64,000 bases of DNA from Candidatus Omnitrophota bacterium (GCA_020632535.1 JACKFJ010000006.1:28866-92865); one strand, 5' to 3'. Positions 1,205 to 61,543 are shown, counted from the first letter of the stretch. Made by a program: numbers and translations. Notes: a model not told the origin generated them from the letters alone.

Positions 1205-1205
1205 T

Positions 1206-4760: not shown

Positions 4761-5993
4761 ATGTTATCGGGTAAGACAAGACTCAATCTTTGCCAGCGGA
4801 TTATTGATCATGTTTTTCGTCCGATGCACTTGGGAAGGATGACGTTGATTTTACCCAATGGCGGAATGTTGACCTACGGGAATGGTCAAGGAGGCGTGCA
4901 CGCGAGTATTCGGATTAATAGGAATGATTTCTTTAAGAAATGTGTTCTTTTTGGTGATGTTGGGTTTGGTGAAGCGTATGTGGATGGGGATTGGGAAACG
5001 GATGATATTACTAAAGTGATCGAATGGATGATTATTAATGTGGATAATCATCCCACTTTGATGTCGGACAAAAAGAAGCGGACACCAGTCAATTTTTTGA
5101 AGATCTGCAATAATATCCTTTCATTTTTTAGGAAGAATTCGCTGCTGGGAAGTCAAAAAAATATCAGCGCTCATTATGATTTGGGAAATGAATTTTACCA
5201 ATTATTTTTGGATTCTTCGATGACATACTCATCGGCATATTTTAAGCATCCTAATCAATCACTTGAGGATGCTCAATATCAAAAATATGAGGGATTGTGT
5301 CAGAAGTTAAAATTAAAACCGACTGATCATGTTTTGGAGATTGGCAGCGGATGGGGTGGGTTTGCTATTTATGCCGCGAAGAATTATGGGTGTCATGTTA
5401 CGACGGTGACGGTTTCACAACAACAATTTAATTTTGCCTTGTATCGTATTGCGGCAGAGCAATTAGCGGATAAGATTACGCTTGAGTTAAAGGATTACCG
5501 TAAAGTCGAAGGGAAATTCGATAAGATTGTTTCAATCGAAATGTTGGAGGCGGTGGGGCATGAATATTATGAATCCTATTTTAGCCAATGCCATCATTTG
5601 CTTAAAAAGGACGGAATTTTGGCTTTGCAAATGATTTTGTCTCCGGATAATCGCTATGAATCTTTTAGGAAGAATATTGATTGGATTCAAAAACATATTT
5701 TCCCGGGGAGTCTTCTTCCTTCGGTAGCGATTATTCAAAAAATGATTAATAAAACAGGTGATCTTAATTTGTATCATTTTGAGGATATCACTGCTGATTA
5801 TGTTAAAACTCTCGCGATTTGGCGTGAGAATTTTAACAAAAAATTGGAACAGGTGCGTGGGCAGGGATTTGATGAGACGTTTATTCGCAAGTGGAATTAT
5901 TATTTATCCTATTGTGAAGCGGCTTTTAAAACGCGCAATATTTCTGTCGCGCAAGTTGTTTTTACTCGGCCCAACAATTTATCACTTATGTGA
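4761..5993 (+). CDS. cfa: cyclopropane-fatty-acyl-phospholipid synthase family methyltransferase (paralog 2)
   Basis: SAM motif VLEIGSGWGGFAIYAA, plus YFKHPNQSLEDAQ..K and the C-terminal YLSYCEAAF CMAS signature. Start taken at the first ATG after the DUF1365 stop. Confidence 0.85.
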   Translation: MLSGKTRLNLCQRIIDHVFRPMHLGRMTLILPNGGMLTYGNGQGGVHASIRINRNDFFKKCVLFGDVGFGEAYVDGDWETDDITKVIEWMIINVDNHPTLMSDKKKRTPVNFLKICNNILSFFRKNSLLGSQKNISAHYDLGNEFYQLFLDSSMTYSSAYFKHPNQSLEDAQYQKYEGLCQKLKLKPTDHVLEIGSGWGGFAIYAAKNYGCHVTTVTVSQQQFNFALYRIAAEQLADKITLELKDYRKVEGKFDKIVSIEMLEAVGHEYYESYFSQCHHLLKKDGILALQMILSPDNRYESFRKNIDWIQKHIFPGSLLPSVAIIQKMINKTGDLNLYHFEDITADYVKTLAIWRENFNKKLEQVRGQGFDETFIRKWNYYLSYCEAAFKTRNISVAQVVFTRPNNLSLM

Positions 5994-11309: not shown

Positions 11310-14300
11310 AAAAATCATTGATTTTTGCGCCCGCCAAAAGTTTTTGGTTTTGAGTTTTGTCTTCGTCGCGATTGTTGCGTCGGTGTGGTCAGTTAAGAAT
11401 ATTCCGTTGGATGCGATTCCGGATTTGTCGGACACACAAGTCATTGTTTACTCACGCTGGGACAGAAGCCCGGATCTTATTGAAGATCAAATCACATATC
11501 CAATTGTTTCAGCATTATTAGGAATTCCCGGTGTTAAGGCGATTCGTGGCGCGTCTGATTTTGGGTTTTCCTATGTGTATGTCATTTTTAAAGACGGGAC
11601 GGATTTATATTGGGCGAGGAGTCGTGTTTTAGAATATTTGAGCAAAATTTCTTCGGAATTGCCGCAAGGCGCAAAAACAGAATTAGGCCCTGATGCCACC
11701 GGTGTGGGCTGGGTGTTGCAATATGCCTTGGTGGATACTTCTGGAAAGCATGATTTGGGAGAATTGCGCAGTTTTCAGGATTGGCATTTGCGCTATTGGT
11801 TGCAATCTGTTCCCGGTGTCGCGGAAGTTGCGGCTCAAGGCGGGTTTGTTAAACAGTATCAGATCACTGTCGATCCACGAAAATTATTGGCGTATAACAT
11901 TCCGATTACGAAAGTCATCGAAGCCGTGCGTCAGGGCAATCAAGAAACCAGCGGCCGGTTGGTGGAATTTACCGGCGCGGAATATATGATTCGCGGACGA
12001 GGATATGCCAAATCTATTGAAGATTTTGAGAAAATTGTTATTGCCCGTGATGATGCTTTGGGCGCGCCGATTACTATCAAAGATATTGGTCATGTCGCCA
12101 TTGGCGGGGATATTCGTCGTGGGGTTTTAGATTTAAACGGAGAGGGTGATGTGGTTGGCGGGACGGTTGTTATGCGTCAAGGTGAAAACGCTCTCAAAGT
12201 CATTGACGCTGTGAAAGCAAAGCTTAAGGAGACGCAATCCGCGCTGCCTGATGGTGTCAGAGTTGAAATTACATATGATCGATCTGATTTGATATTGCGG
12301 GCGATCGATAATTTGAAGAAACAATTGCTCGAGGAAATGATCATTGTCAGTATTGTGATCTTAGTATTTTTGTGGCATTTCCCATCGGCATTTATTCCGA
12401 TTCTGACGATTCCGATCGCGGTTTTGCTTTCGTTTATTCCTCTTTTGGGTTTGAAATTGACATCCAACATTATGTCCTTGGCAGGGATTGCGATTTCGAT
12501 CGGTGTTTTGGTCGACGGAGCGATTGTGCAAATGGAAAATGTTTATAAGCGACTGGAAGAATGGGAAGCCAATGGTCGAAAGGAAAATCCGCAAGATGTC
12601 ACGTTAAAAGCTCTAAAGGAAGTTGCGCCTTCGATCTTTTTTGCCTTGCTTGTGATCGCGGTTTCTTTTTTGCCGATTTTCACGCTTTTAGATCAAGAAG
12701 GTCGTTTGTTTAAGCCATTAGCATGGTCAAAAACATTTGCGATGGCGATTGCCGCGATTCTGGTCGTGACTTTAAATCCGGCACTGCGTTTATTGTTTGT
12801 GAGGACAAAACCTTTTGCCGGACGACCCAAGTGGTTGATGTCGCTGGGTAATTCGCTTTTTGTGGGACGGTTTTATGCCGAGGAAAAGCATCCTGTTAGT
12901 AAGGTTTTGTTCAAAGTATATGAGCCTGTGTGTCGCTTTGTTCTTAAGCATACAACCGCGACACTTGTTGCGGCATTTCTTTTGATGGCCAGCACTGTGC
13001 CGATCTTTTTAAAATTGGGATCGGAATTTATGCCTCCGCTCTGGGAAGGCCAGATTTTGTATATGCCCATTACCATGCCGGGGATTTCGGTAACAGAAGC
13101 GCAGAAATTATTACAAACGCAGGATAAGATTTTGAAGCAATTTCCTGAAGTCGATAAGGTTTTTGGGAAAATCGGGCGTATTGAAAGCTCGACGGATCCA
13201 GCGCCGTTTTCGATGGCGGAAACGGTTGTTCTGTTGAAGCCCGAAAGCCAATGGCGTGTGGTTAATGGCCATCGTTTGAAACATGATCAATTGATTGCGG
13301 AAATGGATCAAGCGTTAAAAATTCCCGGGACAACCAATGCTTGGACTATGCCGATTAAGAATCGTATTGACATGCTTTCGACAGGTATTCGCACGCCAAT
13401 CGGGATAAAAGTTTTAGGAAGTAATTTTCAGGAAATTGATAAAATCGGGATGCAGTTGGAGGCCATGTTAAAGGATATCCCCGGCACGCGCAGTGTTTTT
13501 GCCGAGCGAACGCAGGGTGGATATTTTCTTGATTTTGATCTTAATCGTGATCGGTTGGCACAATATCAATTGTCCGTTGCAGACGCGCAGACGACTATTC
13601 AATCGGCGATTGGCGGTGAGAATATTACGACAACGATTGAGGGCCGCGAGCGGTATAATGTCAATGTTCGTTATCCACGTGCTTTGCGTGACGATTTGGA
13701 TGATTTAAAACGCGTGCTTATCGTAACTCCGTCAGGGGCGCAGATTCCATTGGGTGAGGTTGCTAATATTGTTGTGCGTACCGGGCCGTCGATGATTCGC
13801 AATGAAAACGGTATGCTCGCTGGATATGTTTATGTCGATGTTGCCGGGCGCGATATCGGCAGTTATGTTAAAGAAGCAAAAAAGATCGTGCAACAACAGT
13901 TGAAAGTCCCCCAAGGTTACAGCTTGATATGGAGTGGTCAATACGAAAACATGTTGCGTGTCAGGGAACGTTTAAAGATTGTCATTCCTTTGACTTTATT
14001 TATTATTGTCTTGTTGTTGTATATGAATACAAAATCTTGGGTGAAAACCGGGATTGTTTTATTGGCGGTTCCGTTTTCGCTTGTCGGCGCTTTTTGGTTA
14101 CTGTGGGCATTGGATTACAATTTATCGATTGCCGTGTGGGTGGGTATGATCGCTTTGATGGGTCTTGACGCGGAAACAGGAGTATTGATGTTATTGTTTT
14201 TGGATATTTCTTATAAAGACGCTGTTAGTCGTGGCGCAATGAAATCCAAAAATGATTTGCATGAAGCGGTTGTTCATGGTGCTGTCCGTCGTGTTCGTCC

Positions 14301-14980: not shown

Positions 14981-14985
14981 GGTTT

Positions 14986-15070
14986 TTACCTATTGCGAGG
15001 AGGCCAAAGGCTGACGTGGCAATCGAGTAGAAATTGTTTCGTCGCCCTATAAGCTCCTCGTAATGGGTAA
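14986..15070. repeat. 85-bp long imperfect palindrome (hairpin element, family B)
   Basis: ttacctattgcgaggag (14986-15002) pairs with ctcctcgtaatgggtaa (15054-15070). The two mismatches are G-U compatible on the + strand. The arms extend imperfectly to about 40 nt. Confidence 0.75.
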
Positions 15071-15157
15071 TATTTGCGTGATACTCATTGAAATTCGATT
15101 TTTATGATTTATACTTAGGAGTGTATTATTCAATCCTAAACTAAAGAATCGTTCTTT

Positions 15158-22796: not shown

Positions 22797-23300
22797 ATGT
22801 TTTTTAATAAACATAACAAGTGGATATCTGGTTTTACTATTCTTGAGCTCATCATTGTTGTCGTCATTGTTGGGGTTTTGACGAGCTTGGCGATTCCTAA
22901 ATTTTCGAGTGTTATTGAGCGAGCTCGAGCAACTGAGGCTATAGTTGCTCTAACACAAATTCGTGCGGGCATGGATCGATGTTATGTGATGCAACGAGAT
23001 TATACTAAATGTATTGGTGGACCGGGAGGATTCTTTTCTAAAATTGGTCTTCAAGACCCATCGACATCACCAAATAGCCATTTCACGTATATATATACTG
23101 TTATAACGCCTTCTGGATATATAATTCCTGCAAATAGGAATACTCGTGATTTGGTTGTTCCAATTCCGGGTGGGTGGATTAATTGTGAGGGAAACGCTGT
23201 GGGTTTGCCGAACAGCGCAATTGCATTGTGTGTTAGTCCAAATCAATCTTCGATTCGTGGAGTAGGAATTTACTCTGGAGTTGATACGACTCCATATTGA
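22797..23300 (+). CDS. prepilin-type N-terminal cleavage/methylation domain protein (paralog 2)
   Basis: GFTILELIIVVVIVGVLTSLAIP. Shares an identical 36-nt stretch and about 65 aa of N-terminal similarity with paralog 1. Confidence 0.85.
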   Translation: MFFNKHNKWISGFTILELIIVVVIVGVLTSLAIPKFSSVIERARATEAIVALTQIRAGMDRCYVMQRDYTKCIGGPGGFFSKIGLQDPSTSPNSHFTYIYTVITPSGYIIPANRNTRDLVVPIPGGWINCEGNAVGLPNSAIALCVSPNQSSIRGVGIYSGVDTTPY

Positions 23301-47452: not shown

Positions 47453-50124
47453 TGTAAATTTTTCAAAACTTCCTGTAGTTCCTTGGTTTCTTGAATAAGA
47501 ACGATAAGGCGCGCCTGCTCTTTTTCGATAACGTCGGCAGGAGCTTTGCTGACAAAAGATTCATTCTTTAAACGTTGCGATATTCCTGCCGCGGATTTTT
47601 CTTTAAGCATAATTTCGTGCTGCATTTTTGCTTTCTCTTTTGCAAGGTCAACGAGTTCACCTAAAGGAATTGTAAATTTTATCGGTTGTCCCCCTGTTGA
47701 GCTGACAACTCCCGATGCGGCATCTTTATGCGTGGGAAGTTTGTCATGGAGTTGAAAATTTTTTAATTTTAAGAACGAAGTGAGAGTTTCACTGTTGTCT
47801 TTCAACAGCGTTTTGCTGTAAGAGTCGACGGCCGCGAAATAGCATTCGATTTCTTCCTGAGGCTTGATATGCCATTGCGAACGAATATTACGGATAACGG
47901 AAACCAGATTGATCAAAGTGTCCATTTGGTCAATTGCCGCAACGTTTAGAAATTCGCTTTTTGTTTTCGGCCAACTGTCTAGGGAAAGCGGGATATCATT
48001 TTCGGTTAAATTTTCCCAAAGTTCCTCAGTGACAAATGGCATAAAAGGATGAATCATGCGCAGCGATTCTTTTAAAATAAAGAATGCGGTTTGTTGGACT
48101 TTGTCATCGGAGAATTTGTTTTTACTGATTTCCAGAAACCAGTCGCAGTAATTTTTCCAGAAGAAATCATAAATCAGATTTTCGGCTTCGGAAAAACGGT
48201 AACCTTCAATTGCGGTATTGACTTCTGTTAAGGTTGTATAAAATTTGGAAATGATCCATTGTGAAGCAAGGTCGTTTGTTTGCGGCGGTGCGCTAATTTT
48301 TCTGTTCTCTGGCTTGGTGTTGATCAAAATTAAACGCGAAGCATTCCAGATTTTATTGGCGAAGTTGCGGCCGCCTTCGAATTTTTCCTTTGAGATAAAA
48401 AGATCTTGCCCAGAATTCATGATCAGGCTAAAGCGTAAAGCATCGGCGCCGTATTCAGCGATGATTTCCAGTGGGTCGAGAGCGTTGCCGAGAGATTTGG
48501 ACATTTTTCTGCCCTTTGCGTCACGGACAGTGCCGTGGATGTAAACGTCCTTGAATGGGGCTTCGCCCATGAATTCATAACCTGCCATGACCATGCGACT
48601 GACCCAGAAGAAAATAATTTCGGACGCGGTAAAAAGTGAATTGGTAGGATAAAAATATTTCAAATCATCATTACGAGAAACTGCCTTTTGTGACGAAGCA
48701 ATCTCGTTAAAAGTATTTCCCGGCCATCCGAATGTCGCAAACGGCCATAACCATGACGAGAACCATGTATCAAGAACGTCTTCATCCTGCTTTAAATCTT
48801 TTGAATGACAATGAGGACATTCCGTCGGTATTGTTTCGCTGACAATTGGGTGGTCTTCACATGTTCCACAATACCACACTGGTATGCGATGTCCCCACCA
48901 GATTTGACGCGAAATGCACCAGTCGCGAATTCCTTCCATCCAGTTGATATAAACTTTTGTCCAGCGATCGGGATAAAACTTGATTGTGCCATCGACAACC
49001 GCTTTGAGCGCGGGCTTAGCGAGCGGCTTCATATTTACAAACCATTGTTTGGAAAGATAGGGTTCTACGACAGTGTTGCAGCGATAGCAATGTCCCACTG
49101 CGTGTATGTGCGGTTCAATTTTCTCAATTAGTTCTAAATTCTTAAGTGTGTCAATAACAGCTTTGCGTCCATCGAAACGGTCGAGGCCTTCGAATTTTCC
49201 GGCTTCTTTATTTAACTTTGCATCGGGATGCATGATATTAATAAATTCCAAATTGTGCCGCGTTCCCATTGTGAAGTCATTGGGATCATGCGCCGGTGTA
49301 ACTTTAACCGCGCCACTTCCAAAAGCGGGATCGACAAGCTCATCGGCAATAATTTTAATTTCGCGGCCAATGATTGGAAGCACGAGGATTTTGCCGATCA
49401 AATCTTGATAACGTTTATCCGCAGGATTAACGGCAACGGCGGTATCACCGAGCATGGTCTCAGGTCGTGTTGTTGCCACGGTGACAAAATGATTTGGAAT
49501 ATCTTTGAATGGATATTTGATGTGATACAGGTTGCCTTGTGTGTCCTTATGTTCGGCTTCCTCATCGGAGAGCGCGGTTTGGCAACGTGGGCACCAATTG
49601 ATAATATATTTGCCGCGATAGATTAAGTTCTTTTTATAAAGTTCGACAAAGACATGCTTGACCGCTTGACTATAACCGTCGTCCATCGTAAAACGCAAAC
49701 GATCCCAGTCGCAGGAGCTGCCAAGTTTTTTGAGTTGATTGATAATTGTGCCGCCATAATCTTCCTTCCAAGCCCAAAGGCGATTGAGCATTTCATCGCG
49801 GCCGATGTCGTAGCGGGTTTTTCCTTCTTTGGCGAGCTGTTTTTCGACGACATTCTGCGTGGCGATACCAGCGTGATCTGTTCCTACCATCCAGCACGTT
49901 TCAAAACCATTCATGCGTTTGTACCGTGCCATGATGTCTTGCAAAGTATTATTTAAGCCGTGGCCCATGTGCAGAATCCCCGTCACATTTGGCGGTGGAA
50001 TGACAATGGTGTACGGCTTTTTGTCGGGCTTAGGCGTCGCATGGAAAGTGTGATTATCTTCCCAGTACTTGCACCATTTAGCCTCGACTTCAGTAAAATT
50101 AAAACGTGGTGGCAGTTTAGGCAT
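47449..50124 (-). CDS. valS: valine--tRNA ligase
   Basis: 891 aa. PPPNVTGILHMGH (HIGH), KMSKS, and a C-terminal coiled coil. Confidence 0.97.
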   Translation of the reverse strand: MPKLPPRFNFTEVEAKWCKYWEDNHTFHATPKPDKKPYTIVIPPPNVTGILHMGHGLNNTLQDIMARYKRMNGFETCWMVGTDHAGIATQNVVEKQLAKEGKTRYDIGRDEMLNRLWAWKEDYGGTIINQLKKLGSSCDWDRLRFTMDDGYSQAVKHVFVELYKKNLIYRGKYIINWCPRCQTALSDEEAEHKDTQGNLYHIKYPFKDIPNHFVTVATTRPETMLGDTAVAVNPADKRYQDLIGKILVLPIIGREIKIIADELVDPAFGSGAVKVTPAHDPNDFTMGTRHNLEFINIMHPDAKLNKEAGKFEGLDRFDGRKAVIDTLKNLELIEKIEPHIHAVGHCYRCNTVVEPYLSKQWFVNMKPLAKPALKAVVDGTIKFYPDRWTKVYINWMEGIRDWCISRQIWWGHRIPVWYCGTCEDHPIVSETIPTECPHCHSKDLKQDEDVLDTWFSSWLWPFATFGWPGNTFNEIASSQKAVSRNDDLKYFYPTNSLFTASEIIFFWVSRMVMAGYEFMGEAPFKDVYIHGTVRDAKGRKMSKSLGNALDPLEIIAEYGADALRFSLIMNSGQDLFISKEKFEGGRNFANKIWNASRLILINTKPENRKISAPPQTNDLASQWIISKFYTTLTEVNTAIEGYRFSEAENLIYDFFWKNYCDWFLEISKNKFSDDKVQQTAFFILKESLRMIHPFMPFVTEELWENLTENDIPLSLDSWPKTKSEFLNVAAIDQMDTLINLVSVIRNIRSQWHIKPQEEIECYFAAVDSYSKTLLKDNSETLTSFLKLKNFQLHDKLPTHKDAASGVVSSTGGQPIKFTIPLGELVDLAKEKAKMQHEIMLKEKSAAGISQRLKNESFVSKAPADVIEKEQARLIVLIQETKELQEVLKNLQ

Positions 50125-51704: not shown

Positions 51705-51727
51705 TTGTATTTCCTTTCAAAAAAATT

Positions 51728-51800
51728 GTCATCCCCGAATGCTTTAATCGGGGATCCATATCTTTAAAGTGGATTCCCGCTAAGAGATTGCGGGAATGAC
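51728..51800. repeat. double-hairpin intergenic repeat (family A, copy 1)
   Basis: gtcatccccga-atgctttaa-tcggggatcc, then 13 nt, then ggattcccgc-taagagatt-gcgggaatgac. The same two-hairpin architecture occurs inverted at 61478-61543. Confidence 0.85.
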
Positions 51801-51806
51801 AGAAAA

Positions 51807-53027: not shown

Positions 53028-53074
53028 TTTGTACTTCTTCTCCTCTCCCTAAATGTAAGAATCAATATTTTATA

Positions 53075-53190
53075 CAGAATTGCGGTAATGTCACTGGCGA
53101 GTTTGGCGAGCCTCGAGAGGCGAGTCCCTTTTGGGACGAGCCGATAGAGCGCGAGACATTGTCTGAGCCAGGGATATTACCGCAATTCTG
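53075..53190. repeat. 116-bp palindromic intergenic element (family C, copy 1)
   Basis: Terminal inverted repeat cagaattgcggtaat / attaccgcaattctg. The core shares 20/20 nt and about 29/31 nt with the inverted copy at 59337-59433. Confidence 0.85.
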
Positions 53191-54393
53191 TTATAAATTT
53201 TTCCGCATAAAATATTCCATAAATTCTTCACCGTTTTTGAACTTAAGTCCGTGTGCTTTACAACCTGATTCGGTATAATTCTCTGATCCGTCAGGAGTAA
53301 TCCCTTTTCCGAACATGACAAATCCGACAGGCTCGCGAGTGTGGGTGCGCAATTTGACCGGAGTCGGATGATCAGGCAAAATCACAATACGCACATCAGC
53401 GGTCTTTTCAAAATGATTAATAATTGGACCGACAATTTCGCGGTCAATGTGTTCAATGCAATGAATCTTTGCTTTATAATCACCATTGTGTCCAGCTTCA
53501 TCGGGTCCTTCAATATGAATAAAAACAAAATCTTTTGTTTTTAAGGATTCAATTGCGTATTGGGCTTTGCCTGAATAATTGGTGTCGTAATAACCGGTAA
53601 TACCGGGAACTTTTAGAACTTCTAAACCTGCCAGACGGCCAATGCCGTTGACCAAATCAACAGCCGAAATGATTGATCCTTGCACTCCAAATTTATCATG
53701 AAAAAACGGCAAATTGGGTTTGATTCCCTGTCCCCACAGCCAAATACGATTAGCGGGATTTTCTTTCAAATCCACGCGGACATTATTGATCGGATGATCC
53801 GCGAGCACGCGGGCGGCTTTTTCCATGTATTTTAAAAGTGGTGTTGCCGCTGGCTCCATTGGCAAATATTTCTTAATGTTTTGGTTGATAATGTCATGCG
53901 GTGGAACGCATTTGATTTTCATCATGTCTTTGACGTTACGAACCTTCATGACTAAAAGATGCCGATAACCTTGTCCGGGATAAAATTTGATATCCGGTTC
54001 GGCAATTTTTTCATTTAAAGCTGCGATCAGTTCGCTGGCTTCCGCTGTTGAAATATGGCCCGCGCTATAATCCGCCATTTTATCGTTGATGATCGTAACC
54101 AAGTTGCAGCGAAACGCGATTTCATCCGGTTGTAATTCAATCCCTAAGTTGGCCGCTTCTAGAGGTGCGCGTCCTGTAAAATATTGTTCCGGGCTGTATC
54201 CCATTAAGGAAAGGTTCCCGATTTCCGAGCCCGGTTTAAAATTGTCCGGGATGGTTTTGATTAAACCCGTCATACCGTGTTGCGCCAAGTAATCCATATT
54301 GGTGCGATGCGAAGACTCGAGTGGTGTTTTATTTCCGAGGTCTTCTAGTGGAGTGTCGGCCATACCGTCGGGGACAATTACGATATACTTCAT
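53191..54393 (-). CDS. cofactor-independent phosphoglycerate mutase-like protein (ApgM/COG3635 family); candidate non-canonical homoserine kinase
   Basis: [25 protein letters not shown].. is the metalloenzyme-superfamily N-terminus. The gene is embedded between lysC and coaB-thrC-hom, and no thrB is present. Confidence 0.8.
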   Translation of the reverse strand: MKYIVIVPDGMADTPLEDLGNKTPLESSHRTNMDYLAQHGMTGLIKTIPDNFKPGSEIGNLSLMGYSPEQYFTGRAPLEAANLGIELQPDEIAFRCNLVTIINDKMADYSAGHISTAEASELIAALNEKIAEPDIKFYPGQGYRHLLVMKVRNVKDMMKIKCVPPHDIINQNIKKYLPMEPAATPLLKYMEKAARVLADHPINNVRVDLKENPANRIWLWGQGIKPNLPFFHDKFGVQGSIISAVDLVNGIGRLAGLEVLKVPGITGYYDTNYSGKAQYAIESLKTKDFVFIHIEGPDEAGHNGDYKAKIHCIEHIDREIVGPIINHFEKTADVRIVILPDHPTPVKLRTHTREPVGFVMFGKGITPDGSENYTESGCKAHGLKFKNGEEFMEYFMRKNL

Positions 54394-55031
54394 AGGAGTT
54401 TCCTTATTGTTTTGATCAGTTTCTTTGTCAATTCAGATCGTGAATGTGAAATGTTTAGGATTTTCTTTTCTGGATTTACCAGATACGCTTTATATCCGCC
54501 TTTTAAAGTATTGGCAACAACCAAATCACATTTTGAACCAGATATGAGCTTTTGAACTTCAGTGATGATTTGCTTTGTATTTTTGAAATCTTCGAGTTTA
54601 AAACCGACTAAAAACGATTTTGGCGCGAATCTCTTGATTGTTGTGATGAGCTTAGCTGTCGCAACAAGCTTGAGCGTCAAAGTTTTTTTATGAGAACCAA
54701 GTTTTGCCTTAAAGGGTGTCTTTAATTCATAATCAGAAACCGCGGCATTGTGAATAACAACATCATACTTTTTTTTAAGTTCATTCTTTAAAAGAGCTGC
54801 GAGTTCGTGATAAAAGGAAAATTCTTTAACGTGAATATCTTTTGCATCAAGCCGTTTGTTGACTTGACCTTGCAGCAGAGTGACTTTTGCGCCAGCTTGA
54901 TGCAATTTGGTCGCGAGTTTATGTCCAAGTTCACCGCTAGCACGATTGCTGATCACTCGCATCGGGTCAATCGCAATCCACGTCGGGCCGCTCGTAATGA
55001 GAACCCGTTTCCCTTTTAGTGACTTCATCAC
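54390..55031 (-). CDS. coaB: stand-alone phosphopantothenate--cysteine ligase (CoaB domain)
   Basis: [32 protein letters not shown] aligns to the CoaB half of Dfp. At 213 aa there is no CoaC flavoprotein domain. Confidence 0.8.
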
Positions 55032-56077
55032 AGACCGACTTCTTTTAAAATATCTTTGATATCAGGATTGAGCGTGACGGGTTGGCCGACATTTTTAATC
55101 GCGATATTCGGGTCTTTGAGGCCGTGACCAGTCAAAGTACAGACGATGCGACCGCCTTTGAAATCTTTAAAATATCCCTGAGCCTTGAGTTTTAAAATTC
55201 CTGCGACAGGCGCGGCTGACGCTGGTTCAGCAAAAACGCCGCCGTTAGCTAACCGTTTATATGCTGATAAAATTTCTTCATCTGTCACTGAATCTATTAA
55301 GCCGCTTGATTCATCGCGGGCCGCTAGAGCCGGTTTCCAGCTCGCGGGATTACCGATACGAATTGCGGTGGCAAGTGTTTCTGGTTTTTCAACGGCATGT
55401 CCTAAAACAATTGGCGCGGATCCTGCGGCTTGAAAGCCAAGCATTTTTGGTAAAGTTTTTGATTTTCCTGCGGTGTGATATTCCTTATATCCTTTCCAGT
55501 ACGCTGTGATATTGCCAGCATTTCCGACGGGAATGGCATGAAAATCCGGCGCATCGTTTAAACTGTCGCACACTTCAAAAGCGCCACTTTTTTGACCTTC
55601 GATACGAAAAGGATTCAGTGAATTGACAAGTTCTATGGGATATTTTTCAGTAATTGCTTTGACCAAATTTAAGGCATCGTCAAAGTTGCCGCGTATCGCG
55701 ATGACTTTGGCATTGTGAATCATGGCTTGGCTGAGTTTTCCTAAAGCGATATTGCCGTCGGGAATAAGCACCGCGCATTTGAGTCCGCATTTAGCCGCGT
55801 ACGCTGCTGCCGACGCGGAAGTATTTCCCGTCGACGCGCACATGACGGTCGTGGCCCCTTTTTCCTTAGCTTTGGAAATGGCCATTGTCATCCCACGGTC
55901 TTTAAATGAACCTGTGGGATTAAGCCCCTCATATTTTAGATAGACTTTCAGCCCAATCTCCTCGGAAAGATCTTCGGAGAAAATGAGCGGCGTATTGCCT
56001 TCATTTAAAGTTACGACGGGAGTTTTCGCCGTGACCGGCAAAAAGTCGCGATACTTTTCGATAATTCCCTTGTACAT
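55028..56077 (-). CDS. thrC: threonine synthase
   Basis: PLP-Lys motif [21 protein letters not shown]. 349 aa. Confidence 0.95.
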
Positions 56078-56117
56078 AATTATTTACTTTCGATTTTTAT
56101 AGGAGAATTATTTTAGA

Positions 56118-56146
56118 GATCCCCGCTAAAAGATTGCGGGGATGAC
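56118..56146. repeat. single hairpin repeat (family A, copy 2)
   Basis: gatccccgc-taaaagatt-gcggggatgac. The stem differs from the 51771 copy by a compensatory pair. Confidence 0.8.
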
Positions 56147-56164
56147 ATTTTATTTAGATTATTT

Positions 56165-57466
56165 TTACTTTAATTCTTCCATACGGATTGCAACTGGCTT
56201 GGATTTCACAATCCCCTGTTTATGGATTTTATCGAGCGCCACTCTCAACATTTTTTCCTGCGCGTTGTCTGTCAACATAATAACCGGAAGCGCGGAAGCC
56301 CAATGGTCATGCGCTTTTTGCGTCACGGAGTTAATGCCAATTTTGTGTTTACTGAGAATACCTGTGATTTTGGACAGCACACCCACCTTGTCCGGCGCCA
56401 TAAAACGAATATAAAAGCGCGTTGAAATATCATCAATTTTTCTAACCTTTGTTTGGGGAGCTTCACGATAAATATTTGCTAAATACTGATCAGATGGACA
56501 ACCCACGCGTGATGCCAATTGAAACAAATCACTGATGACTCCGGATGCGGCTGTCATTTGCCCAGCACCTTCGCCCGACAATAACACATCGCCCATAGGG
56601 CTCGCATTGACAAACATCGCGTTAAAAATTCCGTTGACATCTGCCAAGGGATGCTTTTTAGAGATCAGCGTTGGATGAACGCGGGCTTCAATTTCACGAT
56701 GTGATTTTTTTGCAATCGCCAAGAGTTTGATTGTTAAACCTAAACTTTCAGCATGTTCGATGTCGTGATGTGAAATTTGGGTAATTCCTTCTGTATACAC
56801 TTCTTCGGCGCTGATAAATTTCCCCATTGTTAATGAAACAAGAATTGCGAGCTTGGACGCGGAATCCATTCCATTGATATCAAGGGTTGGATTGCTTTCG
56901 GCAAAGCCTTTGGCTTGCGCGTCGCTAAGTGCTTGTCCGAATGTTAAATCTTTTTGTGTCATGCCTGTCAAAATATAATTACACGTTCCATTGATAATTC
57001 CGTAAAGGCTTTTGAATTTGTTGCCGGCTAAACCTTCCGTCAGCATTTTAATGAGCGGAACGCCTGCCATGACGGAAGATTCATAATAAATATTGCGATT
57101 ACAGCTTTGTGCTTCCTGAAAAAGTTCTTTGCCGTGCATGGCTAAAAGACTTTTGTTGGCGGTGACGACATGTTTGCCTTTTCTTAAAGCTTCGAGCACG
57201 ATTTGCTTCGCGGGTTTAATACCGCCGATCAATTCAATGACCGCATCGATTTCAGGATCATTAATAATTTTTTTGTAATTGGTTGTCAGGCGAATGTGAT
57301 CTAAACCGTTTGGGAGCTTTTTTTTGATGCTGCGGTCACAAATCGTTTTGAGATCAAATTCAATGTTGAATTTGTCCTTAAAATAACTTTTTCGTTTATG
57401 GAGAAATTGGACAACGCCAGATCCGACGTTTCCGTAGCCGATGAGCCCGAGTGTAATTTTATTCAT
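56165..57466 (-). CDS. hom: homoserine dehydrogenase
   Basis: LIGYGNVGSG NAD fold, catalytic domain, C-terminal ACT domain. Confidence 0.95.
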   Translation of the reverse strand: MNKITLGLIGYGNVGSGVVQFLHKRKSYFKDKFNIEFDLKTICDRSIKKKLPNGLDHIRLTTNYKKIINDPEIDAVIELIGGIKPAKQIVLEALRKGKHVVTANKSLLAMHGKELFQEAQSCNRNIYYESSVMAGVPLIKMLTEGLAGNKFKSLYGIINGTCNYILTGMTQKDLTFGQALSDAQAKGFAESNPTLDINGMDSASKLAILVSLTMGKFISAEEVYTEGITQISHHDIEHAESLGLTIKLLAIAKKSHREIEARVHPTLISKKHPLADVNGIFNAMFVNASPMGDVLLSGEGAGQMTAASGVISDLFQLASRVGCPSDQYLANIYREAPQTKVRKIDDISTRFYIRFMAPDKVGVLSKITGILSKHKIGINSVTQKAHDHWASALPVIMLTDNAQEKMLRVALDKIHKQGIVKSKPVAIRMEELK

Positions 57467-57471
57467 AGCTT

Positions 57472-57837
57472 TTATGGTTTTCCCTGTCTGAAGTGTTCAA
57501 TCAATTTTTTGAGGACAGTTTGTGATGGCAAAGGCAAATTTTCATCAAACTGTACCCGTGTTTCATAGATGATTCCCTTGATCTTATCCTTGGATTCTAA
57601 AACTGTGCCTTTGAGGTGGATAAATTCAGAAAGAATAGGGGTTTTTAATTCAATGCCTAGACGAGTCCCAACAGAAAAGGGTTTGGATGTTACTAGGCAC
57701 ATCCCTCCGACGCTGATGTTTTTTAATTGTGAAGAATTGTGCCGAACCATTGGATCATTCAAATCAAAATATGTCAGTATGAAATGTTCGTTGATGCGTG
57801 GGTGTTTCCGTTTTTCTGGGTGCGAATGATCCGACAT
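57472..57837 (-). CDS. PilZ domain protein
   Basis: RKHPR (RxxxR) and NISVGG (D/NxSxxG) motifs. 121 aa. Confidence 0.75.
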   Translation of the reverse strand: MSDHSHPEKRKHPRINEHFILTYFDLNDPMVRHNSSQLKNISVGGMCLVTSKPFSVGTRLGIELKTPILSEFIHLKGTVLESKDKIKGIIYETRVQFDENLPLPSQTVLKKLIEHFRQGKP

Positions 57838-57864
57838 AGTATGCTGCCTTTTTAATGAGAAATG

Positions 57865-57938
57865 TCGGAGCGGTGAGATTTGAACTCACGACCTCTTGAA
57901 CCCCATTCAAGTGCGCTAGCCATCTGCGCTACGCTCCG
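57865..57938 (-). tRNA. tRNA-Pro (anticodon GGG)
   Basis: Hand-folded sense strand cggagcg-ta-gcgc..gcgc-a-cttga-atGGGgt-tcaag-..gtgag-ttcaaat-ctcac-cgctccg-a. CCA is not encoded. Confidence 0.9.
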
Positions 57939-58105
57939 TAAAAAACTATTTAACACACACCTGCGCGATACCGTTGGGGTACAAGCGCTCCGTAAAAAAC
58001 TATTTAACACACACCTGCGCGATACCGTTGGGGTACAAGCGCTCCGTAAAAAACTATTTAACACACACCTGCGCGATACCGTTGGGGTACAAGCGCTCCG
58101 TAAAG
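57932..58105 (-). repeat. 54-bp tandem repeat, 3 perfect copies plus a degenerate partial copy, overlapping the tRNA-Pro 5' end
   Basis: Units at 57932-57985, 57986-58039 and 58040-58093 are identical. The partial copy is at 58094-58105. Each unit starts (on the + strand) with cgctccg, the complement of tRNA nt 1-7. Confidence 0.95.
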
Positions 58106-58123
58106 CTTTTAATAGATCGAAAA

Positions 58124-58151
58124 ATTATACTATAATACCCTAATCCTGCAA
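58124..58151 (-). promoter_or_regulatory. near-consensus sigma70 promoter TTGCAG-16-TATAAT facing the repeat array and tRNA-Pro
   Basis: On the minus strand, ttgcag is at 58151-58146 and tataat at 58129-58124. Confidence 0.5.
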
Positions 58152-58224
58152 AGGAAAAGTTCGACGATCGAGGTGGTAATGTGCGGGAGAAAGTTTAAGT
58201 TATTTGGATGAGATTGACCCGATC

Positions 58225-59259
58225 TTATTCAGCGTGAGTTTTGCGATGCATCAGGTCAGTAACGGCGCCAGCGGGGGACTTGTTTTTAAAGAGAATATTA
58301 TAGATTTCAGTAATGAGTGGCATGGGGATTTTGTATTTGACACTCAACCGGTATGCCGCTTTAGCAGTTTCAACACCTTCGGCCACGGTATTGGTAGATT
58401 CTAAAATTTGTGTGATCGGTACTCCCTTCCCCAGCTGTTCGCCAACCGTGCGATTGCGGCTCTGTGGGCTAAAACAGGTTGTAATCAAATCGCCTAAGCC
58501 GGTCAAACCGCTAAACGTTTTTGGTTTTGCGCCTAGCGCAGTCCCCAATGTGGAAATTTCTGCCAATCCGCGGGTTACAATCGCAGCTTTTGTATTTGTA
58601 CCATAATTAAGGCCATCGCATACGCCGCAGGCAATGGCAATAACATTTTTTAGACTGCCGCCAATTTCAACACCGATCACATCGGCGTTGGTATAAATTC
58701 GAAAAGTATCAGAGTTGAAAATTTCCTGCAGGGTTTTAGCAACTTTAATGTTTTTGCTGGCAATGACCGCTGTTGTGGGAATTTTCTTGACGACTTCGCC
58801 CGCGATTGTTGGACCAGAAAATGCCGCGAACGTGACATTACCGAGAATATCTTGAACAATTTCTGAAACCCGCATCAAAGTCGTGGTTTCAATTCCTTTT
58901 ACGACACTGACAATAATTTTATTTTTAAGGGAAATCCCGCTTCGCTTTTCGGTGCCGCTTAATTTCTTGATTTTCTTGAGTACGGATCTTAAGAATTGTG
59001 ACGGCACGGCCAAGACAATGATGTCGCTGTCGTTGATCGAAGTGGCGAGGTCGCTTGTGATTTCGACGGAACTAGGAATTTCGACGCCGGGAAGAAATTT
59101 GCGATTAAAGCGGCTCTCCTGCATGTGTTGTGTGTATTCGGGAAACGCGCCCCAGAGTTTGACAGGATAATTTTTGCGCGCAAGGTAAACTGCGAGTGTC
59201 GTGCCCCATCCGCCGTCGCCGATAATTGAAATGTAAGGTATTTTCTTGTTCATAGTCAC
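58225..59259 (-). CDS. gpsA: NAD(P)H-dependent glycerol-3-phosphate dehydrogenase
   Basis: IIGDGGWGTTLA, GSLKNV, and the typical 344-aa GpsA layout. Confidence 0.95.
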   Translation of the reverse strand: MTMNKKIPYISIIGDGGWGTTLAVYLARKNYPVKLWGAFPEYTQHMQESRFNRKFLPGVEIPSSVEITSDLATSINDSDIIVLAVPSQFLRSVLKKIKKLSGTEKRSGISLKNKIIVSVVKGIETTTLMRVSEIVQDILGNVTFAAFSGPTIAGEVVKKIPTTAVIASKNIKVAKTLQEIFNSDTFRIYTNADVIGVEIGGSLKNVIAIACGVCDGLNYGTNTKAAIVTRGLAEISTLGTALGAKPKTFSGLTGLGDLITTCFSPQSRNRTVGEQLGKGVPITQILESTNTVAEGVETAKAAYRLSVKYKIPMPLITEIYNILFKNKSPAGAVTDLMHRKTHAE

Positions 59260-59336
59260 GTCATTTCACGTTTAGTGATGTGGCTTATTATACTTGATCC
59301 GAAGGAAGTTGCAAGGGTTTGAAGTATTTCATATTC

Positions 59337-59433
59337 GCAGAGATAGCCTTATATCCCTGCTCAAACAATGTCTCGCGCTCTCACAAAAGTTCGAGGCTCG
59401 CCAAACTCGCAGGAGATATAAGGCTATCTCTGC
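59337..59433. repeat. 97-bp palindromic intergenic element (family C, copy 2, inverted relative to copy 1)
   Basis: Terminal 19-bp inverted repeat gcagagatagccttatatc / gatataaggctatctctgc. The core is the reverse complement of the 53097-53116 and 53147-53177 segments. Confidence 0.85.
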
Positions 59434-61268
59434 TAAATCGGATTGGTCATGACGCGATAAAGTACAAATGTTTCATTTTCATAGATTGGCTCGAGCAATG
59501 AATTTTTGCCGGGGGTTATATAGCGCATAAAAACGATGTAATTGACGTGGTATTGCGTTATCGCATTGATGAGTGATGATGTAATATCACCATCGACAAT
59601 AACCTTGAAATGTTCGACGGTTTTGAGTCGTTTTTGCCACTCAACGGCTGCTGGATAATTAAAACCAATAATCCCGCAATCTCGGTAGCAAACTAAAACT
59701 TTGCGTTCAGAAAAAATACGAAACCCCCCCATTTCCATATTGTTTGGGGTGAGAATCAAAGCGCTTTTGGGAGTGTGTTTACGAACATAATTCTGCATGT
59801 CAATCCAGTTGCGTTGCAATTGCCAAAATCCGCCACCGGTTTTCTCAATGTCGTTGTGAAGTTGGTGATAATAGATATAGTTTCCGGTTAAGGCGACAAA
59901 GGGCAACATAATAATCATGACTTTCAATAAATTGTGAATCTTCTCATTTTTGAATAGTAAATTTGCGACATAAAATAATATCACCAGACCAATTGTCACT
60001 TGGAGTGTGAAAATGGCAGATTTGCTAAATTGATGTGTGCTAAATTCAAAAGCGATTCCAATAAGGGATACGACAAATAATAGCCATGATAATAGATTTA
60101 GAAGTCCTTTTTCTTCTCGTAGAAGAAAAAGCAATGCGAGACATGCCAGTGTCGCGATGTAATTGTTAAAACGCAAAAGGGAGAACAAAATAACTGCTAC
60201 CGATAAAATGACGTAACGACGTGTTTGCGCTGTTTGGATTAGGAGAATCGTGGTGTAGCCGATTAAAATAAATTGCATAAACTGCAAGTTGCGCACGAGA
60301 TTAAGATCTAGAATAAAGCGGCTGGGAAAAACATACGAAAAAATAAAGGACAGTATAAGAAAGATGCTTCCGCCGACAATAAAAGCCTTAGCTTTGCCAT
60401 CTTTTTGAAATAATGAATTTGTTGTGATGTTTAATACGATGAGTGCCGCCGTTGGCCAGAACTGTTGTGTTCCTTTGAGGAAAACAGAAAAATGCCTTAG
60501 CATTTCTGCAAATGAAACATTGTCAAAAAGAAAAGTCTGCGGGCAGGCGATTTGGTATAAGGCCATCCAGTTTGTCAGATCCCCACTGACGTGAGTCGAA
60601 ACGCGTTGCAATGTCCAGATTAAAACCGGCAAACTAAAAAACAAAAAAAGTCCCACAGATTTTATTAATCTTTTTCCGTGGTCTTCCCTGCTCTTGTATA
60701 AGAGATAAAGCGCCATGTAGCAAAAGGGAAACAAACTGTAAAGCGCGTGAAAGTTGGCGGCAATTCCAAAAAGAATCGCGGCGCGCCCAAAACGGTCTTT
60801 ATAAAAGGAATACATCGCCGCCATGATGATGGCGAGCGCGAATTCTTGATGGGAAAATGTGCGATAGAGAAATTCTTCGACACGAAAAACGAGAATAAAT
60901 GACAAAACGCAAAGGCCAGCGGTAAGATGGTTTTGAGCAATATGTTTCCATAATTTAAATGCGAAGAAAAACAGAAAGAAACGGCTTAAAAGATAAAGGA
61001 TAAAATATGTGGTCGGAATTTGGTCGACGGTTATAACTTTTGCGAGTAATGGAAAAAGGAATGATGTGAAATTATTCTTAAGGGCGTCAACGTAATAATC
61101 ACCGACGTAAAGTTGAGGATCGATGAGACTTTTGAGAAGTGGGATTTCCAGATGCTGATCATCCCACGCGTATGTATAGCCATTGGCGATGAGAAAGATG
61201 AAAAGAAGTGATAGTCCTATGACCCAATCGTTTTTAAAGAGGCTTTTGAGTTTTTCAATACTCGGCAT
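59433..61268 (-). CDS. large polytopic membrane protein (GT-C-like glycosyltransferase guess)
   Basis: 611 aa with about 13 TM helices, then a soluble C-terminal domain of about 120 aa. No catalytic motif confidently recognised. Confidence 0.55.
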   Translation of the reverse strand: MPSIEKLKSLFKNDWVIGLSLLFIFLIANGYTYAWDDQHLEIPLLKSLIDPQLYVGDYYVDALKNNFTSFLFPLLAKVITVDQIPTTYFILYLLSRFFLFFFAFKLWKHIAQNHLTAGLCVLSFILVFRVEEFLYRTFSHQEFALAIIMAAMYSFYKDRFGRAAILFGIAANFHALYSLFPFCYMALYLLYKSREDHGKRLIKSVGLFLFFSLPVLIWTLQRVSTHVSGDLTNWMALYQIACPQTFLFDNVSFAEMLRHFSVFLKGTQQFWPTAALIVLNITTNSLFQKDGKAKAFIVGGSIFLILSFIFSYVFPSRFILDLNLVRNLQFMQFILIGYTTILLIQTAQTRRYVILSVAVILFSLLRFNNYIATLACLALLFLLREEKGLLNLLSWLLFVVSLIGIAFEFSTHQFSKSAIFTLQVTIGLVILFYVANLLFKNEKIHNLLKVMIIMLPFVALTGNYIYYHQLHNDIEKTGGGFWQLQRNWIDMQNYVRKHTPKSALILTPNNMEMGGFRIFSERKVLVCYRDCGIIGFNYPAAVEWQKRLKTVEHFKVIVDGDITSSLINAITQYHVNYIVFMRYITPGKNSLLEPIYENETFVLYRVMTNPI

Positions 61269-61468: not shown

Positions 61469-61477
61469 ATTACTTTT

Positions 61478-61543
61478 GTCATTCCCGCGATCTTTTAGCG
61501 GGAATCTAGTAGTGGATCCTCGATAAAGACATTCGAGGATGAC
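61478..61543. repeat. double-hairpin intergenic repeat (family A, copy 3, inverted)
   Basis: gtcattcccgc-gatctttta-gcgggaatc, then 7 nt, then ggatcctcga-taaagacat-tcgaggatgac. Confidence 0.85.

Follow-up and report, generated by a model that had tools for sequence, protein, structure and literature searches.

The analysed stretch of 64,000 nucleotides, hereafter the window, is chromosomal Omnitrophota DNA. Two palindromic elements of a group that we call family C lie in it between minus-strand genes, at the positions given by a sequence-only reading made before this analysis. Element 1 (53075-53190, 116 nt) separates an apgM-like gene from lysC, and element 2 (59337-59433, 97 nt) separates the gene for a 611-residue DUF6798 protein from gpsA. 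Element 1 carries its two conserved blocks in the order A to B on the plus strand, antisense to the flanking genes; element 2 carries them in that order on the minus strand, in the sense of the flanking genes. Both elements touch a stop codon, as the sequence-only reading had observed: element 1 adjoins the TAA of the apgM-like gene (53191-53193, minus strand; ORF end 53191) at a distance of 0 nt, and element 2 shares 1 nt with the TAG of the DUF6798 gene (ORF end 59433). This abutment is probably a consequence of the very short gene junctions, and not a demonstrated target rule. The description of gpsA as simply the next gene of an operon was overstated, as a promoter (TTGCAA-16-TATAAT, 59287-59314, minus strand) lies immediately downstream of element 2 and outside it; its hexamers are also present, by eye, in the related contigs L012, L015 and L021. 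Element 2 closes a transcription unit and precedes the gpsA promoter. A GTGACA-16-TAAAAT site lies at 53094 to 53067.

The two elements share a core in inverted orientation, as claimed. Block A, GCGAGTTTGGCGAGCCTCGA, spans 53097-53116 (plus strand) in element 1 and 59391-59410 (minus strand) in element 2; all 20 of its 20 positions match, it occurs exactly twice in the window (0 occurrences expected by chance, 100 shuffles), and its first 13 nt are invariant across four copies of the family. Block B, GAGCGCGAGACATTGTYTGAGC, is likewise found in the window only in these two elements. Its 22-nt shared form, GAGCGCGAGACATTGTCTGAGC in element 1 (53147-53168, plus strand), differs from that of element 2 (59359-59380, minus strand) by a single C/T change, and a 1-nt indel follows directly on its 3' side (GAGCCAGGG against GAGCAGGG); the segment GAGACATTGTYTGAG is invariant in four copies. 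Each block bears a GTTTG(R)/GTCTG(R) motif, and the two motifs have the same orientation.

The outer arms of each element are perfectly self-complementary. In element 1, CAGAATTGCGGTAAT (53075-53089) and ATTACCGCAATTCTG (53176-53190) form a Watson-Crick inverted repeat of 15 bp, or 16 bp counting the flanking A/T; in element 2, GCAGAGATAGCCTTATATC (59337-59355) and GATATAAGGCTATCTCTGC (59415-59433, its last base being the first, in plus coordinates, of the TAG stop codon at 59433-59435, minus strand) form one of 19 bp, or 22 bp if one mismatch is allowed. To call the two pairs of arms completely different goes too far: the element ends read CAGA...TCTG, CAGA opens both, and an alignment of the arms with the core as anchor gives agreement at about 11 of 22 positions. 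Element 1 also contains an optional apical hairpin module, GCGAGTCCCTTTTGGGACGAGCC (53120-53142, plus strand), which is absent from element 2 and accounts for the extra GTCCC-TTTT-GGGAC hairpin (53125-53138) noticed earlier. Predicted folds of both elements are very stable on either strand as RNA (-51 to -64 kcal/mol, z -7 to -9.7) and also stable as DNA (-25 to -33 kcal/mol, z -5.8 to -7.9). Family C copies range in size from 97 to 145 bp, with no credible ORF inside.

A covariance model (R1) scored element 1 at 121 bits (E = 3e-26) and element 2 at 87.8 bits (E = 2e-18), and an exhaustive search with it found no third copy in the 64-kb window. Further copies come only from relatives; together with the two in the window, the three related lineages bring the known total to five, and none was found inside a gene. 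No copy was found in a 21-kb stretch of L035, and scans of public genome, metagenome and viral contigs returned chance matches only. An Rfam 15 scan of the window at gathering thresholds reported 4 tRNAs only, and E-value scans of both elements (E ≤ 10) gave noise, the best hits being plant miRNA and CRISPR-DR models at E = 0.2. Among the 50 window proteins scanned, none was a transposase, recombinase, integrase, IS protein or RAYT. We found no description of such palindromic repeats for Omnitrophota in the literature; to our knowledge, work on small repeats of this palindromic kind has dealt almost exclusively with cultivated Proteobacteria, Firmicutes and cyanobacteria.

Syntenic loci from relatives decide what the elements are: in several relatives the corresponding junctions hold no element and measure only 7-42 nt. 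Element 1 brings the apgM-lysC spacer of the window to 163 nt, and a family C copy brings that of L012 to 146 nt; element-free spacers at this junction measure 7 nt (L015-L020) or 20 nt (L022 and L030, each). The DUF6798-gpsA spacer holds element 2 in the window, a family C copy in L015/L017 and a different palindrome in L012; it is empty, at 42 nt, in L021. Taken over both junctions, two relatives carry a flipped family C copy and two more carry unrelated palindromes, the core being reversed relative to the genes at each junction (window versus L012 and window versus L015, respectively). The elements are insertions, in either orientation, into junctions that are otherwise 7-42 nt long. At the apgM-lysC junction, where arm identity between the window and L012 is 10/20 (P = 0.08 against neutral expectation), an inverted orthologous copy and an independent insertion are indistinguishable. 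At the DUF6798-gpsA junction, the arms of element 2 and the L015 copy resemble each other (13/23) while their cores have diverged. A diverged member in L030 (654-775), placed after the gpsA stop codon, retains two GTTTGA motifs and has 28-bp perfect arms of entirely different sequence. L034, a Logan contig of the same species as the window, terminates inside the core, which fits a repeated k-mer in the assembly graph.

Across species, the asymmetric inner part with blocks A and B is near-constant, whereas the outer arms vary yet stay complementary. Core identity between the window and L012 is 77/79 (97.5%), compared with 67.7% at the 4-fold degenerate sites of the flanking genes (binomial P = 3e-11) and about 83% in an orthologous hairpin spacer that does not belong to the family (same two species, counted over the central 71 nt). 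Such high core conservation could equally be a sign of host-level selection. The termini are only about 50% alike between copies. Of the 24 outer-stem pairs in four copies, 14 are altered at both positions, and pairing holds in 94.5% of cells; 0 of 500 shuffles reached this level, and slid controls gave at most 3. The expectation of the sequence-only reading that the arms would covary in further copies is thus borne out. The helix beside the core covaries as well (CUGGC/GCCAG versus CCUGC/GCAGG). About 80 bp of arms from four of the five copies (element 1, element 2, L015 and L030) contain 0 mismatches and 0 G·T pairs; the arms of the L012 copy are imperfect. The arms of elements 1 and 2, which share a genome, differ as much as those of distant copies. 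This is not predicted by simple copying of whole elements from one master, and it counts against a mobile repeat.

Candidate target-site duplications flank the arms of two copies. TTATA stands on both sides of element 1 (53070-53074 and 53191-53195, read directly from the sequence), the right copy including the stop codon of the apgM-like gene, and the L015 copy is flanked by ATTCC direct repeats with a 1-nt offset. Flanking direct repeats are absent from the other three of the five copies (element 2, L012 and L030); 5-bp repeats in at least two of five copies have a chance probability of about 1e-4. A 23-25-nt apical module is common to family C and a second palindrome family, family A, as seen in L012 (5015-5027 and 16121-16145). 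In the arm of element 1, ATTGCGG is similar to the family A terminus CATTGCGAGG.

We conclude, with moderate confidence, that family C is a small, non-autonomous mobile DNA repeat, non-coding and able to form a hairpin, that belongs to a narrow clade of Omnitrophota and is comparable to MITEs, REPINs and ERIC sequences. The filled and empty sites, the flipped orientations, the core conservation, the candidate 5-bp duplications and the arms, Watson-Crick only in four of the five copies, favour this DNA-level reading. Against it count the small number of known copies, the missing third copy in the 64 kb, the absence of a transposase or recombinase among the 50 window proteins scanned, the three copies without flanking direct repeats, the differing arms of the two same-genome copies, the equally good explanation of core conservation by host-level selection, and the ambiguity between inversion and new insertion at the apgM-lysC junction. 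With 5-bp direct repeats outside the arms of two copies, the transposed unit would be the whole palindrome, arms included. A putative trans-acting enzyme, which the window does not encode, would recognise the conserved interior of a folded single-stranded or cruciform DNA hairpin. The closing arms would need only to pair, so that sub-lineages could drift by compensatory change, probably helped by template switching within the palindrome. Inserted copies would then decay, as the imperfect arms in L012 suggest, and an old relic may persist in the 37-kb spacer. Co-transcription in either orientation would place a very stable stem-loop directly after a stop codon, with possible consequences for mRNA 3' stability, for cleavage by RNase III or for read-through. 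Such effects would be side effects, not the reason for the element to exist, and the mRNA hairpin is probably a by-product.

Of the two interpretations that the sequence-only reading had proposed, the DNA-level mobile palindrome is favoured; a structured RNA as the primary function is not supported, because the elements occur in both orientations relative to transcription, match no Rfam family and are absent from close lineages. A rival explanation is a host-selected, cis-acting RNA. It would be a 3'-UTR or inter-cistronic stem-loop, serving as an mRNA stabiliser, an RNase III/E processing site or a terminator, with the core as a protein- or RNA-binding motif. The very stable folds of both elements, the strong covariation of the closing stem, core conservation far above neutral and the position directly 3' of stop codons, with element 2 ending a transcription unit before the gpsA promoter, would all suit such an RNA. 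We nevertheless consider it unlikely. Transcription reads the asymmetric core in one sense in element 1 and in the other in element 2; relatives carry the core reversed at the same junction, and several relatives have no element at these junctions; the absence of G·U pairs from about 80 bp of arms is unusual for helices selected as RNA; and Rfam holds no matching family even at E ≤ 10. No U-tract terminator is predicted at either element, where the gene strand continues after the arms as TATAAAAT... and GAATATGA.... An intrinsic terminator, with a GC-rich stem and a U-run, was accordingly rejected, no terminator-like site having been called at either element.

Mobility of the core alone would make the arms part of the target: the core would enter the centre of a pre-existing dyad, such as a terminator-like hairpin or an older palindrome. 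Near-identical cores with differing arms would follow, as would the similar arms and diverged cores of element 2 and the L015 copy; the apical module, which looks nested at hairpin tips in two families, and the family A-like ATTGCGG in an arm of element 1 point the same way, and the YPAL elements, whose targets lie near dyad symmetry (PMC2229807), provide a precedent. However, the empty junctions of relatives lack any dyad, the candidate duplications flank the arms and not the core, and about 330 kb of related sequence yielded no arm-only hairpin. We regard this route as quite improbable.

We give equally little credence to a distinct form of hairpin-DNA mobility, in which a putative enzyme would read the asymmetric internal loop of the folded single strand, made up of the two direct GTTTG(R)/GTCTG(R) motifs, while the stem varies or is rebuilt by fold-back copying at each transposition. 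This would explain both the perfect Watson-Crick arms that differ in every copy and the flipping cores, which are reminiscent of the flip and flop forms of rolling-hairpin replicons, and would also take in the other mosaic palindromes of the clade. Finally, an orientation-independent binding site for a host chromosomal protein (nucleoid-associated or an uptake-type signal), tolerated only in spacers, is very unlikely: the two direct motifs in the conserved interior, the occurrence of both orientations and a borderline ComP_DUS-like minor pilin in the window (22797-23300) are compatible with it, but there are only 2 copies in 64 kb and 0 in the 21 kb of L035, orthologous junctions differ in whether they hold an element, and a duplex binding site needs no long closing palindrome.

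As a mobile hairpin repeat, family C behaves as expected of a selfish element, with insertion polymorphism, either orientation and positions after stop codons in tight junctions. What is unusual is its reversed conservation pattern, a constant asymmetric interior with covarying ends. If confirmed genome-wide, this would point to recognition of the internal loop of a folded DNA strand instead of terminal repeats, and would offer a handle for finding the mobilising enzyme. The elements also break short-read assemblies of these MAGs, as the end of contig L034 inside the core illustrates, and by setting stable hairpins into the gaps between co-transcribed housekeeping genes (apgM and lysC, for example) they may alter expression.

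Among known systems, bacterial MITEs are short (<300 bp), non-coding and multi-copy; family C has its 97-145 bp and no credible ORF to set beside this, with 2 copies in 64 kb and copies in three related lineages. Insertion polymorphism, as in MITEs, is seen at the apgM-lysC and DUF6798-gpsA junctions, each filled in some genomes and empty in others, and the target-site duplications of MITEs have candidate counterparts in two of the five copies. Conserved terminal inverted repeats matching a parent IS are not seen, and the window contains no IS or transposase. Integron attC sites are also imperfect palindromes (57-141 bp) directly after a stop codon and are recognised as a folded single strand, as proposed for family C, with pairing outweighing sequence. 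In attC, however, the outer R''/R' boxes (RYYYAAC, GTTRRRY) are conserved and the interior is variable, and cassette arrays lie beside an integrase. We rejected attC identity, given the CAGA...TCTG ends without a GTTRRRY box, the absence of an integrase and the flanking syntenic housekeeping genes.

The ERIC sequences, whose ends are conserved between copies, belong to another host phylum; the copy density of family C is low in the available sequence, and the two are likened by description, not by sequence. ERIC or IRU elements are 127-bp imperfect palindromes of enterobacteria (Delihas 2008, PMC2229807), found in transcribed spacers and 3' of genes in either orientation, with size variants due to internal insertions (compare elements 1 and 2) and with mRNA effects that depend on orientation. 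YPAL/RU-2 of Yersinia is similar in that its termini are free of TA and its informative inverted repeats internal; its duplications are variable, it targets sites in or beside dyad symmetry, and close species have filled and empty sites (PMC2229807). YPAL is a 168-bp element. The empty sites of family C show no dyad, and this comparison, too, is by description, not sequence. Correia elements have conserved 26-bp terminal inverted repeats, a TA duplication and an IHF site, and their ends can create promoters; the termini of family C vary, with a possible duplication of 5 bp, and the GTGACA-16-TAAAAT site at 53094 to 53067 is a weak analogue of such promoters. As hairpin repeats of 100-155 bp with internal-segment length variants, co-transcribed with neighbouring genes, the Correia or NEMIS elements of Neisseria are nonetheless similar, and their stem-loops are proposed RNase III substrates (PMC2229807).

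REPINs are REP doublets that form hairpins and owe their mobility to RAYT Y1 transposases (Bertels & Rainey 2011, PMC3116915). The hallmark given in PMC3733652 is a 20-40-nt palindrome with a GTAG or CGTC tag at one end, in an inverted doublet. GTAG is absent from every family C copy, and the sole CGTC belongs to the stem of the apical module, read on the reverse strand, and has no REP stem next to it; with no such tag flanking a short REP stem, membership of the REP/REPIN group was rejected. No RAYT was seen among the 50 window proteins, and IS200-type transposition makes no flanking duplications, whereas two family C copies have candidate 5-bp ones. Both are nevertheless extragenic, non-coding repeats of about 100 nt that are predicted to form one long hairpin in single-stranded DNA or mRNA, with compensatory changes common across the hairpin and mobilisation suggested to occur in trans (PMC3116915). 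REPINs have conserved REPs at the ends and a variable, compensating spacer in the middle; in family C this geometry is reversed.

The first family C element, el1 (positions 53075-53190, plus strand, 116 nt), consists, in order, of the arm CAGAATTGCGGTAAT, GTCACTG, block A (GCGAGTTTGGCGAGCCTCGA), a 30-nt apex that includes GTCCC-TTTT-GGGAC, block B (GAGCGCGAGACATTGTCTGAGC), CAGGGAT and the arm ATTACCGCAATTCTG. In the second, el2 (59337-59433, 97 nt), these blocks lie on the opposite strand, the apex is short and the arms are 19 bp long. These positions are exactly as the sequence-only reading had placed them, and the shared core that it described was recovered: block A matches at 20 of 20 positions, and neither it nor block B occurs anywhere else in the window (expectation from shuffling, zero for each). 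Both elements also touch a stop codon, as had been claimed. el1 lies 0 nt from the TAA of the cofactor-independent phosphoglycerate-mutase-like gene (apgM-like), and el2 shares 1 base with the TAG of the gene for a 611-aa DUF6798 membrane protein. Downstream, el1 is followed by lysC and el2 by gpsA. The same reading had put each element before the next gene of an operon-like array; gpsA is indeed the next gene, but it has its own promoter (TTGCAA-16-TATAAT) between el2 and its start codon, with hexamers that are readable in relatives too. A promoter-like site directed at lysC is present on the minus strand at 53067-53094, where a -35-like GTGACA from the end of el1 is followed, at 16-nt spacing, by a flanking TAAAAT (10/12 consensus). 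We reject this hybrid as a mere consensus match, as such matches occur in the region at the chance rate (25 found, 22.7 expected).

The two junctions differ in their contents among relatives (L numbers denote the contigs or loci compared). The apgM-lysC spacer measures 163 nt in the window, with el1, and 146 nt in L012, from Omnitrophota_Kpj58rc, with a family C copy. It is 143 nt long in L021, where it holds unrelated hairpins, and 71 nt in L029, without a family C copy; it is empty in L022 and L030 (20 nt) and in L015-L020 (7 nt). At the empty sites the lysC ribosome-binding site follows directly after the stop codon. The DUF6798-gpsA spacer contains el2 in the window, a family C copy in L015/L017 and a palindrome of another family in L012 (CCATTGCGAG...CTCGCAATGG); in L021 it is empty (42 nt), with only 6 nt from stop codon to promoter. 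The L030 member is placed after the gpsA stop codon. The elements are therefore insertions, polymorphic among relatives, into very tight junctions, and this tightness means that abutment on a stop codon is expected for any tolerated insertion. At each junction the relative carries the asymmetric core in the opposite orientation with respect to the genes.

R1, a covariance model derived from four family C copies, was run over the window with filters off and matched el1 (121 bits) and el2 (88 bits) and nothing else. Scanning GTDB, at one genome per species, for the exact block A 18-mer gave 11 matches in unrelated, mostly GC-rich taxa, which we attribute to chance because block B is absent from all 11. 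Two scans of the JGI metagenomes with block B patterns returned 0 matches and 5 chance matches, and two scans of IMG/VR returned 0. Looking up the exact lysC of the window gave no record. Family C is therefore narrow, and sparse in available sequence. Protein look-ups led to syntenic loci in relatives, and these were the sole source of additional copies: L012/L013/L014 (Omnitrophota_Kpj58rc), L015/L017 and, as a diverged member, L030/L031. The Kpj58rc region corresponding to window 24-45 kb has no copy. A partial el1 is found in the Logan contig L034, which comes from the same species as the window: the first 52 nt of el1 are unchanged, and the contig ends within the core. Logan contigs of this species from SRR12358676 (L034 4719-4770 and L033 1-110) stop inside the el1 core and inside short hairpin repeats; such repeats thus fragment short-read assemblies of the lineage. 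Outside the elements there is no enrichment of the GTTTGAGC motif, and no transposase or recombinase is present among the 50 window proteins scanned, all of which are ordinary metabolic or housekeeping proteins.

Homologues of ApgM and an AMP-binding protein of 100% identity assign the window to a 'Candidatus Omnitrophica/Omnitrophota' MAG. The window and L012 represent different species, with 91% nucleotide identity in the flanking genes. At the 4-fold degenerate sites of these genes they are 67.7% identical (n = 908); against other relatives such sites are saturated (36-41% identity). Over the 79 nt of the core at the apgM-lysC junction, the window and L012 share 97.5% identity, which exceeds this neutral rate (P = 3e-11). 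In contrast, an orthologous hairpin-containing spacer (window 37125-37270, L035 13190-13326) is ~83% identical (central 71 nt, counted by hand from the alignment). Either strong constraint therefore acts on the core, or both genomes received it recently and independently of each other. Each palindrome half contains a GTTTG(R) motif in direct orientation in all members, including L030, in the form GTCTGA in block B of el1 and L012. The two direct GTTTG(R) motifs are unable to pair with each other and break the symmetry of the palindrome; they are the best candidate for a recognition feature.

The outer arms had been described as self-complementary and unrelated between el1 and el2. They are self-complementary, but not unrelated: both have CAGA at the start, and they agree at about half of their positions. 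Between copies, core-anchored arm identity is 50-57%, above random, and is no greater at the same junction than across junctions; el2 and L015 form the one exception, with a slight excess (13/23, P = 0.03). The arms covary. In the four-copy alignment of the outer stem, 14 of 24 pairs show two-sided change and 94.5% of cells are still paired, a level reached by 0 of 500 shuffles; slid controls gave at most three two-sided pairs. The helix adjoining the core also covaries between el1 and el2, and the inner helices scarcely vary.

Either strand of el1 and el2 forms a single long hairpin, with folding energies of -51 to -64 kcal/mol as RNA (z -7 to -9.7) and -25 to -33 kcal/mol as DNA. The arms of el1, el2, L015 and L030 (16, 19, 17 and 28 bp) have zero mismatches and zero G·T pairs; L012 is the sole copy with non-Watson-Crick positions (four, with no consistent strand preference). 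Stems made of Watson-Crick pairs alone, and the occurrence of the elements in either orientation, indicate that the pairing matters in DNA, or that a DNA-copying process keeps it perfect; they do not indicate an RNA-only helix. We consider it unlikely that these hairpins are a cis-acting RNA element of the host.

TTATA lies on either side of el1 (53070-53074 and 53191-53195) and ATTCC flanks the L015 copy, with a one-base offset; the other three of the five copies have no flanking direct repeats. The chance of direct repeats at two of five copies is ~1e-4. Since these candidate duplications lie outside the arms, the arms would be part of the inserted DNA, and thus of the presumed transposed unit. 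Copying of the arms from the target or from elsewhere was rejected, as neither the empty sites nor ~330 kb of related DNA contains arm-like sequence beyond chance 12-14-mers. Nesting of the core into dyads that were already there, as has been described for the targets of YPAL, seems to us improbable. A host DNA-binding site is the least credible reading, and we give it very little weight.

Family C is a real, previously undescribed repeat family, on the basis of five copies, and we incline to regard it as a non-autonomous mobile hairpin repeat. Under such a mechanism, a putative enzyme acting in trans would recognise the asymmetric, conserved interior within folded DNA, with a single-strand hairpin as the presumed intermediate. 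Pairing would be the sole requirement on the closing stem, and inserted copies would decay in place. The stem-loop that the mRNA forms after the stop codon is plausibly a side effect, as ERIC and Correia elements suggest by analogy (PMC2229807).

el2 lacks the 23-nt hairpin found at the apex of el1 (GCGAGTCCCTTTTGGGACGAGCC), and a second family, whose CCATTGCGAG termini are conserved, has copies that contain it. Repeats in this clade are thus mosaics whose modules are shared. This second palindromic family (family A), which occurs at window 14981-15157 and at 4960-5065, 12575-12655 and 16099-16212 of L012, is bounded by the conserved termini (C)CATTGCGAG(G)...(C)CTCGCAATG(G); its interior is a mosaic and varies. 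In L012 it is commoner than family C, and the two have in common the apical module GAGTCC(C/T)TTTT(G/A)GGAC. The valS gene contains a family A palindrome (window ~48660-48715, minus strand; L012 16099-16212) that is translated in frame. The L012 gene encodes 23 additional residues, the whole 114-nt element reading FIASREERESSFRTSREEARQSHSNEIASSQREAPRNE, and the window gene has the right half only (NEIASSQKAVSRND). In-frame insertion into an essential gene is known in the same form for Rickettsia palindromic elements.

A third family comprises short hairpins of the type GATCCCCGC-TAAAAGATT-GCGGGGATGACA, often paired, in spacers and next to tRNA genes (window 51719-51804, 56111-56155 and 61474-61507; L030 6947-7045; L021 14200-14260; L033 1-60). 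Three perfect 54-nt tandem repeats (window 57932-58104) begin within the end of tRNA-Pro (57864-57938) and repeat its terminal bases; the locus corresponds to L012 6300-6430 and L022 780-1390. In L022 the 3' end of tRNA-Pro is duplicated and a phage-integrase gene fragment is adjacent, which suggests that an integrative element has left scars at tRNA-Pro. The XdhC-cyclophilin spacer holds a hairpin (window 37125-37270, L035 13197-13302) with strings like block A (GGYRATTTGARC) and block B (CATTRAGCCAAGGG). R1 scores the L035 copy at 22.9 bits (E 0.011), with the orthologous window copy below detection, and this hairpin may be an old, decayed family C relative. Two long spacers without an ORF of at least 90 aa or an obvious hairpin repeat (window 1205-1614, 410 nt, and 3972-4682, 711 nt) sit among lipid-modification genes (DUF1295, CMAS methyltransferases, amine oxidase) and may be frameshifted or short genes.

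Several known classes of element were compared with family C. No Rfam family, ribozymes and tRNA-like families included, matched even at E <= 10. The elements have no U-run of the terminator type, and family C lacks both attC boxes and a REP stem tagged with GTAG or CGTC. A k-turn was rejected: its GA/GA tandem beside a bulge of 7 nt can be placed in el1 and el2, but L030 has GCA rather than GA. In behaviour, family C resembles known small palindromic mobile repeats. It lacks the conserved termini that define MITEs, and those features of REPs that could be tested are absent. Its nearest mechanistic analogue is the REPIN, which forms a hairpin in single-stranded DNA and in which a change on one side of the hairpin is commonly compensated on the other (PMC3116915). 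REPINs keep their ends constant and vary in the middle, whereas family C does the reverse.
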